64,000 nucleotides of DNA from a virus. Made by a program: the position numbers and the translations under genes. The notes beneath the pieces were generated by a model. The model was not told where the DNA came from. It ran no database searches and saw only the letters and a program-made list of their open reading frames with translations. Each line of letters starts with the position of its first letter. Position 1 is the first letter of the stretch. Shown here piece by piece: positions 2,818-17,791 of this stretch. The stretch is taken from UHGV virus genome UHGV-0351052. One strand, 5' to 3'.

Positions 2818-3117
2818 TTAAACAGACTTTTTCACAATTTTCCAATCAGCTTTAAACTGTTCAACGTCAGAATGGTAAATCCAGAATCCTGCGCTTTCTC
2901 CGTCTTCATAAAGCGGACACCCATCGCATTCATCTTCCCATCCCATGCCACGTAAAAGGTGTTCAGCTTTTTCAACAAGTTCAGAATCTTTACCGATGAT
3001 ATTAAAATACCATTTACCTCTAACTTCCGAATCTTTGATGCTCTGACGTTGTAATCTCATTTTATTCTCCTTAGTTGATAAGGCTATAGTATCACTACCA
3101 TAGCCTGTTGTAAACAA
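2818..3117 (-). CDS. hypothetical protein (99 aa)
   Basis: ORF track; 32-frd interval. Confidence 0.5.
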   Translation of the reverse strand: MFTTGYGSDTIALSTKENKMRLQRQSIKDSEVRGKWYFNIIGKDSELVEKAEHLLRGMGWEDECDGCPLYEDGESAGFWIYHSDVEQFKADWKIVKKSV

Positions 3118-3378
3118 TTATTTTTGAATTTTATCGAGCCACTTACCGAGCTTAATCATTTCTTTAGTAGCCTTTTCCATACTTCTGAACTTAACCAATA
3201 GAGGATAGGTATCGACACCCATAACTAAATTGGTTACAAGACTGTGTTCACCCACAAGCCATAACGAATACGTTTGAATATCGAGCCCGTAATTTCTGTC
3301 TTTATGGACCCGTACACCCATCACTTCAAATTTCTCACTAGCTTTTTCTACCGCATCCAGGAAATCATCTTTAGTCAT
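3118..3378 (-). CDS. hypothetical protein (86 aa; start moved to ATG at 3378)
   Basis: ATG at 3378 sits in a TAATATG junction with the upstream stop; ORF-track start is upstream and overlaps. Confidence 0.45.
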   Translation of the reverse strand: MTKDDFLDAVEKASEKFEVMGVRVHKDRNYGLDIQTYSLWLVGEHSLVTNLVMGVDTYPLLVKFRSMEKATKEMIKLGKWLDKIQK

Positions 3379-3379
3379 A

Positions 3380-3766
3380 TTAGGCCTTAAAAGTTTTTCG
3401 CAAAAGTTCAATGATTTCGTCTACATTGTTTTCATCTACAATGCAGTGAATTTTTGTTACGCCAGAAACTATACCTTCATTAGCGGATTGAGGCTTTTCT
3501 AAAGTTACCTCAGTAAAGTATTTGAATTCTTCAGGGTAAATCTCAAAATACGTCTCAAGTGGGCCACCCGCCATGTATTCAGTGCCATCTTCCATAGTTA
3601 CACGTACCACACATTCACCAGCACAATCATCACTTTCCATTTCATCTACAACAAAACTAGGTCCATGCTTCTCTATTAAATTTAGCATCATCACATTGCA
3701 ACGGCACTCGTTAGCAAAGTCATTTTTAAATAAAGGGTTAATGATATAAGTTTTTCCGATTTTCAT
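3380..3766 (-). CDS. hypothetical protein (128 aa)
   Basis: ORF track; 32-frd interval. Confidence 0.5.
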   Translation of the reverse strand: MKIGKTYIINPLFKNDFANECRCNVMMLNLIEKHGPSFVVDEMESDDCAGECVVRVTMEDGTEYMAGGPLETYFEIYPEEFKYFTEVTLEKPQSANEGIVSGVTKIHCIVDENNVDEIIELLRKTFKA

Positions 3767-3810
3767 TTATTTTCTCTCATTTTGATAGGGGCTTAATAGC
3801 CCCTTGATAA

Positions 3811-4038
3811 TTATTGTTCAATCAGTCCCATGTAAAATTCTGCGTCTTCAGAATCCATGCCATCACAATATTCATTAGCCATAAAGCGGGTAAGGTCTTC
3901 AAGAGGACCTTCAATAACGATTTGAATACTCCAAAACTTAGAATCTTGCACGCTTGTGATACTAAGTTCAGGATAACGATTACGAATAATCTCTTCAATA
4001 TATTCAAAATCAACGATGTCAATATCAACTTTAGCCAT
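3811..4038 (-). CDS. hypothetical protein (75 aa; start at ATG 4038 MAKVDIDIV...)
   Basis: GAGGAAAATAATATG ribosome site; the ORF-track N-terminal extension runs through the promoter block. Confidence 0.45.
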
Positions 4039-4077
4039 ATTATTTTCCTCTCTAATCATCAGCAGTATTGCCGATAG

Positions 4078-4132
4078 TTGTATAGTACCATGGAAGAACA
4101 AGGATGTAAACAGTTTTGTGAAAAAATTTTTG
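4078..4132 (-). promoter_or_regulatory. T4-type early (sigma70) promoter block, copy 1
   Basis: Minus strand reads AAAATTTTTTCACAAAACTGTTTACATCCTTGTTCTTCCATGGTACTATACAA: GTTTACA -35-like, about 17-nt spacer, TGGTACTAT extended -10-like. One of six near-identical copies. Confidence 0.5.
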
Positions 4133-4161
4133 AAATAAAAAAGGGGACCTCTAGGGTCCCC
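4131..4161 (-). terminator. intrinsic terminator hairpin downstream of gene 32
   Basis: GGGGACC-TCTA-GGGTCCCC stem-loop followed by a T-run on the minus strand. Confidence 0.5.
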
Positions 4162-4183
4162 AATTAATTAGTAATATAATCTA

Positions 4184-5092
4184 TTAAAGGTCATTCAAAA
4201 GGTCATCCAGGTCCGTGTCATCAGCACTAGATGAACTGCCAGAGCTTGAGCTCATAAAATCATCTTCAGTTTTTGTTTTGAAGTCATCAACATTGAATGC
4301 ATCCAAATCATCAGCAACTTTATCAGCTTTCTTAGCAGCAGTCGCTGCGGCACCACCCATAGCAGCAGTTCCCATAACTTGACTGAACTTAGTGCTCAGT
4401 TCTTCAAATGATTTGAATTTATCTTTAGAAGTCATTTCAGAAAGGTCAACCATTTGTTCGAACAGTTCTTTCTGGAAAGATTCATCATCAATGTTTGGAA
4501 TCGCAGATTGATTCAGGAATTTAGATTCATCGTAGTTACTAAATCCAGAAACCTGTTTAACTTTCAGTACAAAGTTAGCACCTTCCCACGGACAAGTTAC
4601 ATCAACCGGAGTTTCACCCATTTCAACATCAACTGCAATCATTGCATTGATTTTATCCCAGATTTTCTTACCGAAACGATATTTAAATACTTTACCTTCG
4701 TTTTCTGGAGCAGCTGGGTCTTTTACTACAAGAATGTTAGCCCAATAAGAAGTTTTACGTTTAACAAGACTGTACTCTTTATTGTCAGTGTTGTACAGAT
4801 CATTTTTACTGATGTACTGACATACTGGACAAGAATCGTAATCACCGTGGGTAGATGAACAGTTTTCAATATACCATTTACCATTTTTCTTGAAGCCGTG
4901 ATTTACAAGAATTGCGAATGGTGCTTGTTCATCATTTTTAGACGGAAGAAAACGAATTACTGCTTGACCGTTACCCGCATTATCGAGTTTCAGTTTCCAC
5001 TCGCCTTTATCTTCAGAAGAAAAACCACCTTTATTTCCAGCCAGTTTAGCCATTTGTGCAGCGAGTTCAGCAGTAGATTTACGTTTAAACAT
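4184..5092 (-). CDS. 32: single-stranded DNA-binding protein gp32 (302 aa)
   Basis: Near-identical to remembered T4 gp32 ([50 protein letters not shown]...), acidic C-terminal tail. Confidence 0.95.
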
Positions 5093-11351: not shown

Positions 11352-12467
11352 ATGGAAAAATTTATGGCAGAGTTTGGACAGGGATATGTCCAAACGCCAT
11401 TTTTATCGGAAAGCAATTCAGTAAGATATAAAATAAGCATAGCGGGCTCTTGCCCGCTTTCTACTGCAGGGCCATATGTTAAATTTCAGGATAATCCCGT
11501 TGGAAATCAAACATTTAGTGCAGGTCTTCATTTAAGAGTTTTTGACCCTTCTACGGGAGCATTAGTTGATAGTAAGTCATATGCTTTTTCTGCTTCAAAC
11601 AATACAACATCTGCCGCTTTTGTCAGTTTCATGAATTCTTTGTCAAACAATAAACTTGTTGCTATATTAACTAGCGGAAAGGTTAATTTTCCTCCTGAAG
11701 TGGTATCTTGGTTAAGGAGAGCAGGAACTTCAGTTTTTCCATCAGATTCAGTATTGTCAAGATTTGACGTATCATATGCTGCTTTTTATACTTCTTCTAA
11801 AAGAGCTATCGCATTAGAGCATGTTAAACTAAGTAATAGAAAAAGCACAGATGACTATCAAACTATGCTAGATGTTGTATTTGATAGTTTAGAAGACGTT
11901 GGAGCGACAGGATTTCCAAAAAGAACTTATGAAAGCGTTGAACAATTTATGTCTGCGGTTGGAGGAACTAATAATGAAATTGCGCGATTGCCAACTTCAG
12001 CTGCTATAAGTAAACTTTCTGACTACAATTTAATTCCTGGTGATGTTCTTTATCTTAAAGCACAGTTATATGCTGATGCTGATTTACTTGATCTTGGAAC
12101 TGCAAATATATCTATTCGTTTTTATGATGCATCAAATGGATATATTTCCTCGACCCAAGCTGAGTTTACTGGGCAAGCTGGGTCTTGGGAATTAAAAGAA
12201 GATTATGTAGTTGTTCCTGAAAATGCAGTAGGATTTACGATATATGCACAAAGAACTGCCCAAGCAGGTCAAGGCGGCATGAGAAATTTAAGCTTTTCTG
12301 AAGTATCAAGAAATGGCGGAATTTCGAAACCTGCTGAATTTGGTGTCAATGGTATTCGTGTTAATTATATCGGTGAATCCTCTTCACCTCCAGATATAAT
12401 GGTACTTCCTACACAGGCATCGTCTAAAACTGGTAAAGTGTTTGGACAGGAATTTAGAGAAGTTTAA
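11352..12467 (+). CDS. 35: long tail fibre hinge protein gp35 (371 aa)
   Basis: Position and size between 34 and 36. Confidence 0.8.
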   Translation: MEKFMAEFGQGYVQTPFLSESNSVRYKISIAGSCPLSTAGPYVKFQDNPVGNQTFSAGLHLRVFDPSTGALVDSKSYAFSASNNTTSAAFVSFMNSLSNNKLVAILTSGKVNFPPEVVSWLRRAGTSVFPSDSVLSRFDVSYAAFYTSSKRAIALEHVKLSNRKSTDDYQTMLDVVFDSLEDVGATGFPKRTYESVEQFMSAVGGTNNEIARLPTSAAISKLSDYNLIPGDVLYLKAQLYADADLLDLGTANISIRFYDASNGYISSTQAEFTGQAGSWELKEDYVVVPENAVGFTIYAQRTAQAGQGGMRNLSFSEVSRNGGISKPAEFGVNGIRVNYIGESSSPPDIMVLPTQASSKTGKVFGQEFREV

Positions 12468-12529: not shown

Positions 12530-13180
12530 ATGGCTGATTTAAAAGTAGGTTCAACTGTAGGTGGATCTGTCATTTGGCATCAAGGAAATTTTCCGTTGAA
12601 TTCAGCCGGTGACGATGTACTCTACAAATCATTTAAAATATATTCAGAATATAATAAACCACAGGCATCTGATAATGATTTCGTTTCTAAATCTACTGGT
12701 GGTACTTACACTGGTCCAATTACTATTAATTACGGGGTAAATAGTTATCTTCAATTAAGTAATAATGAAACCCCAATTCGAATTCGTTCCGGTGGCGGTA
12801 CCGGTAATACTCTTGTAATTGGCGGCTCTTCTGGCGGTATTAGTTTTAGACCTGCGGGTAGTGAAATCACTACTGGACAAATTACTATTACGCCAGAAGG
12901 TTTGACAACATTTACTAGGGCTGTAACGGCTCCATCTGTAACTGTTACATCTACTCCTTCCGCAGCATCAGATGCTACTCGTAAAGATTATGTTGATGGA
13001 GCAATAAATACTGTTACAGCAAATGCAAACTCTAGGGTATTACGCTCTGGAGACACTATGACAGGAAATTTAACTGCGCCAAACCTTTTTTCACAGAATC
13101 CTGCATCTCAACCTTCACACGTTCCACGATTTGACCAAATCGTAATTAAGGATTCTGTTCAAGATTTCGGCTATTATTAA
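12530..13180 (+). CDS. 36: long tail fibre distal connector gp36 (216 aa)
   Basis: Position and size; [24 protein letters not shown]-terminus. Confidence 0.8.
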
Positions 13181-13188
13181 GAGGACTT

Positions 13189-16100
13189 ATGGCTACTTTA
13201 AAACAAATACAATTTAAAAGAAGCAAAACTGCAGGTCAACTTCCTGCTGCTTCAGTATTAGCCGAAGGTGAATTGGCTATTAATTTAAAAGATAAAACAA
13301 TTTTCACAAAAGATGACTCAGGCAATGTTATAGAATTAGGTTTAAAATATGGAGGAACAATTGATGGTTCTTTAACTGTTAATGGAAATATAATTGGAAA
13401 TTTAACAGGTAACGCTGCAACTGCAACGAAATTAAAAACAGCACGAAAAATTAATGGTATATCCTTTGATGGGTCAAAGGATATCACGCTAACTCCATCT
13501 GACATAAATGTCAATAGCACAACATTTATAAAAAATAATGGCGAATTACCTGTTGATGCTAATTTAGATGAGTATGGGCCTGTTGAAGAATATCTTGGAG
13601 TTTGGTCGAAAGCAACTTCAACCAACGCTCAACCAGCAAATAAATTTCCAGAACAAAATGCTGTAGGTGTGCTAGAAGTATTTGTGGCCGGTCAATTTGC
13701 TGGTACTCAGAGATATACAACTAGATACGGAAATGTTTATATTCGTTCCTTGACTGCTACATGGAACGGAGTAAATGGTCCGTGGAGTGTGTGGCGAAAT
13801 ATTCAATCCGGTACTCGTTCACTGTCAACAACAATTGATCTTAATGATCTAGGAGGCGCTGAACACTTGGGTTTGTGGCGAAATAGTTCAAATTCCATTG
13901 CTACCTTTGACAGAAATTTCCCAGAAGAAGGATCGTCAGCTCAAGGACTTTTAGAAGTATATGAAGGTGGAAACTATTCTCGCACACAGAGATATACGAC
14001 CAGATTTGGTGTTGTTTATACTCGCTGTCTTACTGCTGCGTGGGATGCTTCTGCGCCTAAATGGGGACCGTGGCAACAAGTCGGTAATGTCACACCAGCG
14101 ACTTTTTATGATGGAGATCTGAATGATTTTAAAACTCCTGGGTTATATAATATTTTAGGCACTGATGCCGTTATTAACTGTCCTACAGGTGAAGGTTTGC
14201 CGACTGTTATTGTTGGTTTGCTGGAAGTTAAACAGCGTGCTTCTGGCGGTGCTATTTTCCAAAAATTTACTACTGCCGGAACGGGTTCAACTACTCGCGA
14301 TCGTATTTTTGAGCGCGCATATACCGGCGGTGTTTGGGGTACATGGAACGAAGTATACACATCCTATTCTCTACCAATTACTTTGGGTATGGGCGGTATT
14401 AAATCTAACTTAGCTGAGTTAGACTGGCAAACCTTTGATTTTGTCCCTGGTAGTATGTTTAGTGTTCCTTTGAACAAAATAAAGAATATGCCAGCAAATA
14501 TGGATTGGGGTACGATTGACGGAAACTTGGTTATGTTTTCTGTCGGTCCTAGCGAACACACTAGCACAGGGCGTACTGTTCAGGTTTGGCGTGGTACTGT
14601 ATCCCAGACAAACTACCGTTATTTTGTCGTTCGTGTGTTCGGTAATTCTGGAAATAGAACTTGTACAGTTCGACGCGTTGTTCTTGAAGATGGTCGCCAC
14701 AAATGGACAGCGCAACAAGATTTTAATGGTGCAGTTAACTTCGGTGCTCCTACCAATTTTAACTCTACTGTTAACCTTAATAACACTACCACATTTAAAA
14801 CAGAAGTTAAATTCCGCTCATTGAATGCATTTAAAATGTATGGTGGTAATTTTGGTACAATTTTCCGTAATGATGGTGAAAGTCTTTATATTCTTTCCAC
14901 CAACGAAAATGATCAAGATGGAAACTTTAACACCAATAGACCTTTCCGGTATCAGTTTAGAACTGGTGATGTTACTTTGGGTGGAACTAGTGGTGCTAAT
15001 ATTTTAAGATTAAAAAGTAGTTCTCTTGCTGCTACCTTTGGTGGTGATGTTAACTTAAGTAAAGGTACATTGACGTTTGAGGCGGGTGGTAAGCAATCAC
15101 GAGATTACTTCCGGTTTAACCATTGGGGTGATAGCAATAACGCTCGTGATAACATTATTCAGTTAGAAGACAGCAAAGGCGCTCATTTTTCCACTGAACG
15201 TACTTTAGCGACAGGTGCAATTAAAACTCGTTTCTTTGGCGAAACATTCACTGATGGTACATTATACCTAAATCAGATGAATAATAGCTCTGAACGATTC
15301 TCTATCAACAATTGGGGAAATTCAGAAGCTGGACGCGCGGCAGTATTGGAAGTCGGCGATTCCAAAGGTTATCACTTCTATACGGAACGCAGGACAGATA
15401 ACAGTTTGATGTTTGATGTTGCTGGCGCTTTTACTGTGCATGGACCTTCCGGGATTACTATCAAAAACTCAGCTGGCGCACGCCATATCTGGTTTAGAGA
15501 TGATAGCGATGCAGAAAAGGCTGTTATCTGGGCTACAGATGATGGTCTTTTACATATACGAAATAATAATGGGGGTTCATTTAGTCATCACTTCCAGGGT
15601 GCAATGATTAAAGTGGGAGAGCGTGTTCCTTATGCCGGAGATCGAGGGCTTATTCGCGGTGAAGTTTCTGGTGGTGCTTATGTGGATTGGAGAGGCCGCC
15701 CTGCTGGTTTGTTGCTTGACTGTCAACAAAGCGTTAATAGTGCTCATGCTATTTGGAAAGCGGTTGATTGGGGGCGTAACTACATCGCTGCTCTGGACGT
15801 TCATTGTCCCGGCGATAGTAATAATACTGCAGCAGCGGTTCTCCATGTTCAGTCTGCTGATTATCAATTCCATGCAAATGGGAGCTTTGATGCCAGTGGC
15901 AACGGAAACTTTAACGATGTTTATATTCGATCAGACCGTCGCCTTAAAGACAATATAGAAGATTATACCGGAAATGCGTTAAGTTTGATTGGTAAACTGA
16001 AAGTGAAAACTTACGATAAAGTTAAATCTCTTAAGGACCGTGAAATTATCGGTCATGAGATCGGCATTATCGCACAGGATTTACAAGAAATATTACCAGA

Positions 16101-16284
16101 AGCGATTAATATTTCGAAAATTGGCAATCTTGATAAACCAGACGAAGTTCTGACAATTTCTAACTCTGCTGTGAATGCTCTTTTAATTAAGGCCATTCAG
16201 GAAATGAGTGAAGAAATTAAAGAATTGAAAACGCCTTTCTTCACTAAAATTGCTCGCAAAATTGGTAAATATTTTAAATTCTAA
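13189..16284 (+). CDS. 37: long tail fibre distal subunit gp37 (1031 aa), T2-type with C-terminal self-cleaving chaperone domain
   Basis: N-terminus [13 protein letters not shown] conserved with T4 gp37; remainder diverges and lacks the T4 His-rich needle tip. Confidence 0.85.
15931..16281 (+). other. intramolecular chaperone / autoproteolytic domain at gp37 C-terminus (about 117 aa)
   Basis: Begins [12 protein letters not shown]..., the S-D-x-R-x-K-x-N-I signature of peptidase S74-type domains; T2 gp37 is known to lose about 120 C-terminal residues. Confidence 0.55.
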
Positions 16285-16290
16285 CAACAA

Positions 16291-16309
16291 GGGGGAAATT
16301 TCCCCCTTT
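16291..16309 (+). terminator. hairpin GGGGGAAATTTCCCCC plus TTT after gene 37
   Basis: Perfect 6-bp GC-rich stem then a short T-run; probably a weak or attenuating terminator. Confidence 0.35.
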
Positions 16310-16321
16310 GGAGTATAAATT

Positions 16322-17104
16322 ATGGCAGTAGTTGGAGTTCCTGGCTGGATTGGAAGTTCAGCCGTAAATGAAACGGGACAGCGCTGGATGAGTCAAGCGG
16401 CTGGTCAACTAAGATTGGGTGTTCCTTGCTGGATGAGTCAATTTTCAGGTCGCTCGCGAGAAATTATTCATACACTTGGCGCAGACCATAACTTCAATGG
16501 TCAATGGTTCCGTGATAGATGCTTTGAGGCGGGTAGTACACCTATAGTGTTTAATATTACAGGTGATTTAGTATCATATTCTAAAGATGTTCCTTTATTC
16601 TTCATGTACGGGGATACACCTAATGAATATGTTCAGTTAAATATACACGGCGTAACGATGTATGGTCGTGGTGGTAATGGCGGTAGCAATGGTCCTGGCT
16701 CATCTGGTGGTCATTGTATTCAAAATGATATTGGTGGAAGACTAAGAATTAATAATGGAGGTGCTATCGCAGGCGGTGGCGGTGGTGGCGGTGGTGGGTA
16801 TTATTCTCCCACGAAACCAATGAAATTAACCTTTGGTGGTGGTGGCGGTCGTCCGTTTGGTGCTGCTGGTGGATCTGCCAACATGCAATCAGGCGCAACT
16901 GCTGGTACTCTTTATGCGCCTGGCGCAGGGTCTGTAAACGGTGTCTATAGCGGCGGTGGCGGTGGTGAGGTAGGCGCCGCAGGAGGTAGATGCAATATTC
17001 GCGGTCAAGGATCTGAATATAATGGCGGCGCTGCTGGTTATGCTGTCATAGGGTCCGCTCCAACATGGCAAAATGTTGGAGCAATATATGGTCCAAGAGT
17101 ATAA
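16322..17104 (+). CDS. 38: receptor-recognising adhesin gp38, T2/T6 type (260 aa, glycine-rich motifs)
   Basis: Poly-Gly motifs ([54 protein letters not shown]) separated by variable segments; T4 gp38 is a 183-aa non-Gly-rich chaperone. Confidence 0.75.
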
Positions 17105-17108
17105 TTTG

Positions 17109-17116
17109 AATAAATA
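17109..17116 (+). promoter_or_regulatory. late-promoter-like AATAAATA upstream of t
   Basis: 7/8 match to TATAAATA, 18 nt upstream of the t ATG, followed by AAAGGAGG ribosome site. Confidence 0.35.
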
Positions 17117-17134: not shown

Positions 17135-17791
17135 ATGGCAGCACCTAGAATATCATTTTCGCCCTCTGATATTCTGTTGGGTGTTCTAGATCGCTTGTTC
17201 AAAGATAATGCTACCGGGAAAGTTCTTGCTTCCCGGGTAGCTGTCGTAATTCTTTTGTTTATAATGGCGATTGTTTGGTATAGGGGAGATAGTTTCTTTG
17301 AGTACTATAAGCAATCAAAGTATGAAACATACCGTGAAATTGTTGAAAAGGAAAGAAATGCACGCTTTGAATCTGTCGCCCTGGAACAACTCCAGATAGT
17401 TCATATATCATCTGAGGCAGACTTTAGTGCGGTGTATTCTTTCCGCCCTAAAAACTTAAACTATTTTGTTGATATTATAGCATATGAAGGAAGATTACCT
17501 TCAACAATAACTGAAAAATCACTTGGAGGATATCCTGTTGATAAAACTATGGATGAATATACAGTTCATTTAAATGGACGCCATTATTATTCCAACTCAA
17601 AATTTGCTTTTTTACCAACTAAAAAGCCTACTCCCGAAATAAACTACATGTACAGTTGTCCATATTTTAATTTGGATAATATCTATGCTGGAACAATAAC
17701 TATGTACTGGTATAGAAATGATCATATAAGTAATGACCGCCTTGAATCAATATGTGCTCAGGCGGCCAGAATATTAGGAAGGGCTAAATAA
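17135..17791 (+). CDS. t: holin (218 aa)
   Basis: Matches remembered T4 holin: single N-terminal transmembrane segment and large periplasmic domain. Confidence 0.9.
   Translation: MAAPRISFSPSDILLGVLDRLFKDNATGKVLASRVAVVILLFIMAIVWYRGDSFFEYYKQSKYETYREIVEKERNARFESVALEQLQIVHISSEADFSAVYSFRPKNLNYFVDIIAYEGRLPSTITEKSLGGYPVDKTMDEYTVHLNGRHYYSNSKFAFLPTKKPTPEINYMYSCPYFNLDNIYAGTITMYWYRNDHISNDRLESICAQAARILGRAK

Follow-up and report, generated by a model that had tools for sequence, protein, structure and literature searches.

A recombinant gp38 adhesin allele, T6-like by sequence and probably directed at Tsx, in a T-even phage genome

Introduction

The gp38 adhesins of T-even phages read their receptor through the segments that lie between glycine motifs (PMC3157838; PMC6851490; PMC12892980; bioRxiv 10.64898/2026.04.02.716166), and the conserved glycine motifs themselves have been described as sites of exchange (PMC3157838). 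In T2 and T6, the C-terminus of gp37 is cleaved and gp38 then caps the protein (PMC3157838), while in the S16 structure three N-terminal tryptophans of gp38 dock into the gp37 trimer (PMC6851490). The gp38 of T4 is not a virion component, and the T4-type arrangement is the less common one among T-even phages (PMC3157838; PMC6851490). With two solved structures, the adhesin family is already well characterised, and the gene described here does not change how gp38 adhesins are understood.

Receptors have been reported for several relatives. The T6-like phages RB3, RB5, RB6, RB7, RB14 and RB27 are all Tsx users, and Tsx binders have been described with a common set of four sequences in their hypervariable segments (HVS) (PMC3157838). 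FL04, FL15, FL23 and FL44 use Tsx, FL18, FL08 and AV119 use OmpA, and the transfer of modules between genera has already been described (PMC12032242). Tsx is also the receptor of Bas36 and Bas37 (bioRxiv 10.64898/2026.07.23.740414); the main text of the BASEL paper does not state the receptors of these two phages. CM8 uses Tsx as well, and the HVS3 substitution Q206L switched RB68 from OmpF to OmpW. In PST, the changes Q167R/M168I/G208I extended plating to Yersinia and brought in OmpA (PMC3157838). Two independent studies have found that gp38 similarity or phylogeny predicts the receptor.

Here, we analysed a stretch of 64,000 nt from the virus genome UHGV-0351052 (the window), in which an initial annotation had described a glycine-rich adhesin of T2/T6 type in an otherwise T4-like backbone.

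Genome background and gene neighbourhood

Judged from nucleotide identity, the window belongs to a Tequatrovirus of the RB3/SHFML-26 group. The entire region is collinear with Shigella phage SHFML-26 at 95%, and this phage was the best match when positions 1-25000 were compared with 50,697 phage records, none of which exceeded 95.6% identity. The tail-fibre region contains the following features:

11352-12467: g35, from gene order
12530-13180: g36, from gene order
13189-16284, + strand: g37, distal half-fibre subunit of 1031 aa, T2/T6-type, without an adhesin tip of its own (Pfam Gp34_trimer and Peptidase_S74)
15931-16284, + strand: C-terminal intramolecular-chaperone domain of gp37, predicted to be cleaved before capping by gp38 (Peptidase_S74; S16 alignment)
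16291-16306, + strand: perfect 16-nt palindrome GGGGGAAATTTCCCCC, RNA hairpin between the g37 stop codon and the ribosome-binding site (RBS) of g38 (sequence scan)
16322-17104, + strand: g38, receptor-recognising adhesin of 260 aa, assigned to the T6 subtype (ORF, Pfam, PHROG, AlphaFold2 model)
17135-17791, + strand: gene t, holin (Pfam Phage_holin_T, 1.5e-116; T4 homology back)

The order g35-g36-g37-g38-t is followed by homologues of asiA, arn and motA on the other strand, and 37 nt separate the g37 stop codon from the g38 start codon. The description of the backbone as T4-like was borne out: nucleotide identity to T4 was 90.8% over g34-g36 and 96.6% from position 17110, i.e. from gene t onwards, and homology was lost only between 13343 and 17110, which corresponds to the body of g37 and g38. 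Past its first ~155 nt, g37 had no homology to the g37 of T4. Homology to T2 was lost between 13338 and 17024. From these comparisons, the window appears to carry the usual T2/T6-style g37-g38 module at the place where T4 has a lambda-derived one.

In gp37, the Peptidase_S74 domain spans aa 915-972. The motif SDRRLK, starting at S915 and followed by 116 aa after that residue, aligned with SSDRRIK of S16 gp37 (6F45_A). By analogy with T2 and T6, the C-terminus of this gp37 would be cleaved.

Three further observations were made in this region. Over positions 1-25000 the genome lies near the 95% species boundary, and it may represent an undescribed Tequatrovirus species. The long-tail-fibre hinge connector gp35 (11352-12467) matched the Pfam family ILEI (interleukin-like EMT inducer / FAM3C-type) over aa 58-122, with 33.4 bits against a cut-off of 27, and its homologues on two other contigs did likewise. 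Residues 160-392 of gp37 (13666-14364) contain three degenerate units of ~45-50 aa with the pattern G[VL]LEV...TQRYTTR.G.VY.R.LTA.W...W, which begin at residues 160, 253 and 343 with a spacing of ~90 aa; these are presumably knob-domain repeats within the distal half-fibre.

The short g37-g38 interval was inspected for regulatory elements. A stem-loop of different sequence is located at the equivalent spot in RB5, phiS, FL15, T2 and T4, and one was found in every T-even phage compared; RB5, Bas37 and SHFML-26 have a GGGGG-AAAT-GCCCCC-like form, T2 and T4 the form GGGC-TTCG-GCCC. It seems that the structure of this hairpin is conserved rather than its sequence. An intrinsic terminator on the + strand was rejected, as the palindrome was called on the - strand only and the + strand tail, TTTGG, is not a T-run. 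The element TATAAATT (16314-16321) fills the gap from the RBS to the start codon of g38 and agrees at 7 of 8 positions with the T4 late-promoter consensus, TATAAATA. A late promoter was nevertheless rejected, because the element overlaps the RBS-start spacer, transcription would begin inside the ORF, and the element, present in P922, phiS, Bas37, FL15 and SHFML-26, is absent in RB5. It probably represents no more than an AT-rich spacer.

Architecture and predicted fold of gp38

The g38 ORF runs uninterrupted on the + strand from the ATG at 16322 to the TAA at 17104 (260 codons) and is preceded by the RBS GGAG at 16310-16313, 8 nt 5' of the start codon. Glycine makes up 24.6% of the protein (64 residues), with a density of 37.8% in aa 114-240 vs 9% in aa 47-113. 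The runs comprise G9 (aa 151-159) and two G5 (aa 172-176 and 211-215), and further glycine-rich stretches include GRGGNGG (aa 115-121) and several GG pairs. The length of 260 aa and the at least four poly-glycine motifs given in the initial annotation are both confirmed, and all five canonical glycine-rich motifs (GRMs) of the adhesin family could be placed in the protein. Three runs of at least four glycines per sequence were reached by 407 of 20,000 composition-preserving shuffles of gp38. The protein spanned the whole Pfam GP38 model (PF05268; E 6e-72, 242.5 bits, cut-off 25), and it matched Gp38_N (PF21721) over aa 1-41 (E 2e-20, 72.9 bits, cut-off 25) and, at 1e-111, PHROG 2056 ('tail fiber protein; host specificity'); no NCBIfam model matched gp38 or gp37. 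The glycine composition and the 6e-72 match are each far beyond chance. The following domains and segments were delimited:

16322-16459, + strand: attachment domain at the N-terminus (aa 1-46), a T6-type variant carrying W9, W22 and W37 (Gp38_N at aa 1-41; 96% identity to T6, RB5 and M1)
16661-17041, + strand: specificity domain (aa 114-240), with the GRMs (polyglycine-II sandwich) interleaved with HVS1-4 (37.8% glycine; contrast between GRMs and HVS; identities)
16799-16834, + strand: HVS2, i.e. loop B (aa 160-171), the most diverged receptor loop (TKPMK; maps onto PP01 loop B)
16874-16951, + strand: HVS3 (aa 185-210), which includes loops C and D (substitutions vs RB5; PP01 loop mapping)

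Among 109 aligned homologues, the mean frequency of the top residue was 0.72-0.90 in GRM columns vs 0.40-0.52 in the four HVS between them, in line with the initial description of variable segments separating the glycine motifs. W9 was invariant and W22 nearly invariant both among 14 reference sequences and among the family homologues, and W37 was invariant among the 14 reference gp38s. These three residues correspond to the tryptophans that dock S16 gp38 into gp37.

An AlphaFold2 model built from the 109-sequence alignment reached a mean pLDDT of 91.7. When this model was searched against the PDB with Foldseek, it matched 9V85 (PP01 gp38; E 9e-26, TM 0.87 normalised by target length, rmsd 2.3 Å) and 6F45_D (S16 gp38; E 6e-23, TM 0.80 normalised by query length), with TM values of 0.75-0.87 for the two structures and all other matches at E>4. 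A sequence search of the PDB likewise returned only 9V85 (1.3e-81) and chain D of 6F45 (6e-50). The predicted fold is that of a three-domain adhesin with a polyglycine-II sandwich. Loops A-E of the PP01 crystal structure were transferred to gp38 through a HMMER alignment and fell on aa 121-125, 161-170, 184-189, 205-209 and 225-232 (34 residues), where loop B corresponds to Q161-V170 of PP01. Since the sequence matches, the predicted fold and the g36-g37-g38-t synteny agree, g38 encodes a T-even long-tail-fibre tip adhesin of a well-known family. By analogy with its relatives, the protein would be present in the virion.

Subtype and likely receptor

Over its whole length, gp38 was 95% identical to the protein of phiS, 93% to those of RB3, RB5, RB6, RB7, RB9 and RB10, 92.7% to Bas37, SHFML-26 and IP008, and 92.3% to Bas36. 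Because identity was 88% to T6 vs 51% to T2, we assign gp38 on sequence grounds to the T6 type and not to the T2 type. The T2/T6 label of the initial annotation can thus be narrowed to T6: T2 gp38 (FadL/OmpF) shares family and architecture with this protein, but it has another subtype of attachment domain (63% identity in the N-domain) and only 45% identity in the specificity domain. The N-domain was 96% identical to the T6 variant (T6, RB5 and M1) and 52-63% identical to the RB27, FL23 and T2 types.

The specificity domain (aa 114-240) was 85-89% identical to T6, RB5, RB27 and FL23, 64-73% to M1, Ac3 and FL18, and 45-50% to FL08, AV119 and T2. The gp38 of wV7 is nearly identical to those of the OmpA users FL08 and AV119, M1 is presumably an OmpA user as well, and the OmpC class was represented in the comparison by 9V85. 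All 177 of the 177 phage-record matches to the HVS2-4 segment were of the T6-like type. As the specificity domain shares 85-89% identity with proven Tsx users vs 45-73% with the OmpA and FadL classes, the receptor of the adhesin is probably the nucleoside channel Tsx of E. coli/Shigella, which is the best prediction because the receptors of the relatives are known and gp38 similarity predicts the receptor. The earlier statement that the receptor cannot be inferred from T4 biology therefore holds for T4 itself, while the T6-like relatives do allow Tsx to be inferred with moderate confidence. That the segments between the glycines read the receptor agrees with what the cited papers have established for this adhesin family.

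The allele departs from the tested Tsx binders in part of its receptor loops. The core of loop B reads TKPMK vs F[S/P][Q/R]MR in all Tsx users examined (in full YYSPF[S/P][Q/R]MRLT). Four of the five core residues of HVS2 and 5-6 residues of HVS3 differ from the Tsx users, and HVS1 and HVS4 are near-identical to theirs. In the HVS3 region, A182, A186, N187, L197, Y198 and V208 stand against P, I, D, I, S and I in T6/RB-type proteins, the last five as compared with RB5. There are 18 aa differences from RB5, 10 of them in aa 160-210 (P=0.0005) and 8 within the 34 residues that align with loops A-E of PP01 (P=0.0007). P166 occupies the position of Q167 in T6. Among the sequences found, this loop B otherwise occurs only in the gp38 of phiS and in P0006, a gp38 encoded on a phage contig. 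Literature searches by phage name and accession returned nothing relevant on the receptor of phiS, P0006 is without a published receptor, and the loop peptides are absent from the supplements of the 2026 receptor-prediction preprint. Because the loop-B and HVS3 changes cluster in contact loops and small HVS changes are known to switch receptors, the Tsx prediction is not a safe one for this particular allele.

Mosaic origin of the allele

No phage record exceeded 91.1% nucleotide identity over the g38 gene. Relative to P922, there were 3 mismatches in nt 1-135 and 2 in nt 676-783, while nt 361-585 showed 33 mismatches to P922 vs 7 to the P0006 contig. The allele is accordingly a nucleotide mosaic with P922-like ends and an HVS2-HVS3 core like that of the P0006 contig, with crossovers around GRM2 (nt 436-477) and GRM4/GRM5 (nt 598-666). 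The same specificity core is combined with a T6-type attachment domain in the window and in phiS, and P0006 combines it with an RB27-type domain. Against every relative, synonymous codon differences exceed non-synonymous ones by ~3:1, which indicates that g38 is under purifying selection overall.

The phage phiS, which is filed under Krischvirus, shares only positions 15221-17094 of the window (phiS 2901-4773) at 89% nucleotide identity; this stretch takes in g38 and the final third of g37. Identity drops to 72% in its t gene, and no alignment was obtained for the remainder. From this alignment, it looks like the tail-fibre-tip module of phiS and the window has been exchanged between genera. 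Little is new here: a recombinant allele, with no more than 95% identity to the protein of any named phage, and a receptor-loop variant. The exact gp38 sequence has been assembled before, on one 26.6-kb Logan contig from a public read set (cluster table).

Alternative explanations

The position between g37 and t could suggest that g38 encodes a T4-like assembly chaperone not found in the virion, with gp37 carrying the receptor tip itself. Gene name and position are all that the protein has in common with the gp38 of T4, which is unrelated in sequence and differs in function: BLASTP between the two gave no similarity (E=1.7), so that an alignment along the full length does not exist, and the earlier description of the T4 protein as 183 aa long (552 nt without stop) was accurate. 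Moreover, gp37 has no T4-type tip at its C-terminus, where an S74 chaperone domain is found instead, and the predicted fold of gp38 matches adhesins whose structures were determined together with the gp37 tip. The chaperone reading is already refuted by sequence and predicted fold, and we give it negligible weight. Nor is the adhesin itself unusual, because adhesin-type gp38 was detected in 813 and T4-type gp38 in 297 of the 50,697 phage records (tblastn); an adhesin gp38 is the ordinary and commoner state in T-even phages. The mosaic origin raises the question of whether the allele is a non-functional or decaying copy, and it is the one observation pointing that way. We consider such decay very improbable, given an intact, full-length ORF with an RBS, the retention of family-invariant residues, the ~3:1 excess of synonymous differences vs every relative and a model of high confidence.

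A different kind of alternative accepts the adhesin and its mechanism and supposes that the TKPMK / AN..LY allele has a shifted or widened specificity, which might concern another outer-membrane protein (e.g. OmpA), a second receptor as in PST, or a divergent Tsx or another enterobacterial host. The concentration of substitutions in the receptor loops, the location of P166 at the equivalent of the PST host-range site and the precedent of a single-residue receptor switch in RB68 are all compatible with such a shift, and the recurrence of the allele on two attachment domains and in two genome backgrounds suggests a selected functional module. However, beyond loop B the specificity domain is much nearer to Tsx binders (85-89%) than to the other classes (<=73%), HVS1 and HVS4 are almost unchanged, and the tested Tsx users already vary at two loop-B positions (S/P and Q/R). 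A shift therefore appears possible from these sequences, though somewhat unlikely. In its most far-reaching form, the TKPMK / AAGGSAN..LY allele, seen so far only in the window, phiS and one Tequatrovirus contig, may define a receptor specificity outside the characterised gp38 classes (recognition of an outer-membrane protein other than Tsx, or an obligatory need for a second receptor), carried on a T6-like scaffold as a cassette mobile between attachment-domain types; we regard this as a speculative and rather doubtful proposal.

Proposed mechanism and implications

A T6-subtype capping adhesin, with Tsx as its most likely receptor and encoded by a recombinant allele, is the overall explanation that we think likely to hold. 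Added to the family membership, fold, architecture, subtype and mosaic structure documented above, the following sequence of events can be proposed. The folding of gp37 would be aided by its own C-terminal intramolecular-chaperone domain, which would then be cut off at about S915. The N-terminal three-helix domain of gp38 (W9, W22 and W37) would plug into the exposed gp37 tip, such that a monomeric gp38 caps the trimeric distal half-fibre. The GRMs would pack as a polyglycine-II sandwich and present five short hypervariable loops at the distal end of the fibre. There, these loops may bind extracellular loops of an outer-membrane beta-barrel protein, which would be the first, reversible step of adsorption. 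By recombination inside the conserved glycine motifs, the HVS2-HVS3 core of another lineage would have entered a P922/SHFML-26-like gene.

The practical value of these results concerns receptor prediction for T-even phages. Judging from its adhesin, the phage would probably depend on Tsx and not on the OmpC/LPS that T4 uses, which bears on host range, on routes to resistance (loss of tsx) and on the design of phage cocktails. The allele is also a further natural example of cassette exchange at glycine motifs, with crossovers where that model places them. As its loop B falls slightly outside the range of sequences known from tested Tsx binders, it provides a test for sequence-based receptor predictors.

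Comparison with known adhesins

The complex of S16 gp38 with the gp37 tip (PDB 6F45) has the same three-domain fold, composed of attachment helices, a beta-helix and a polyglycine-II sandwich (full-length TM 0.80), and S16 gp37 carries a chaperone-domain motif like that of the window gp37. The S16 adhesin is 44% identical to the one described here and differs in its loops; it binds Salmonella OmpC (cited in PMC12892980). The receptor-binding domain of PP01 gp38 (PDB 9V85) is closer, at 68% identity and an rmsd of 2.3 Å, and its loops A-E map one-to-one. However, PP01 binds OmpC of E. coli O157, and all five loop sequences as well as the receptor class differ.

Among the T-even phages, the adhesins of T6, RB3, RB5, RB6, RB7, RB14 and RB27 share the length class, the T6-type N-domain and the GRM scaffold, with near-identical HVS1 and HVS4; at 88-93% overall identity, the differences lie in HVS2 and HVS3. 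The gp38 protein P0006 (Tequatrovirus contig in E. coli assembly GCA_026110335.1) has the same loop B, with 7 of 147 residues differing from aa 114 to the C-terminus, but it combines this region with an RB27-type attachment domain (258 aa in all), and its partner gp37 has 1103 aa. The closest named protein is the gp38 of phiS (PP449093, Escherichia coli phage), which has the same loop B and is 95% identical overall, and which differs from the window protein in HVS3b, HVS4 and the C-terminus.
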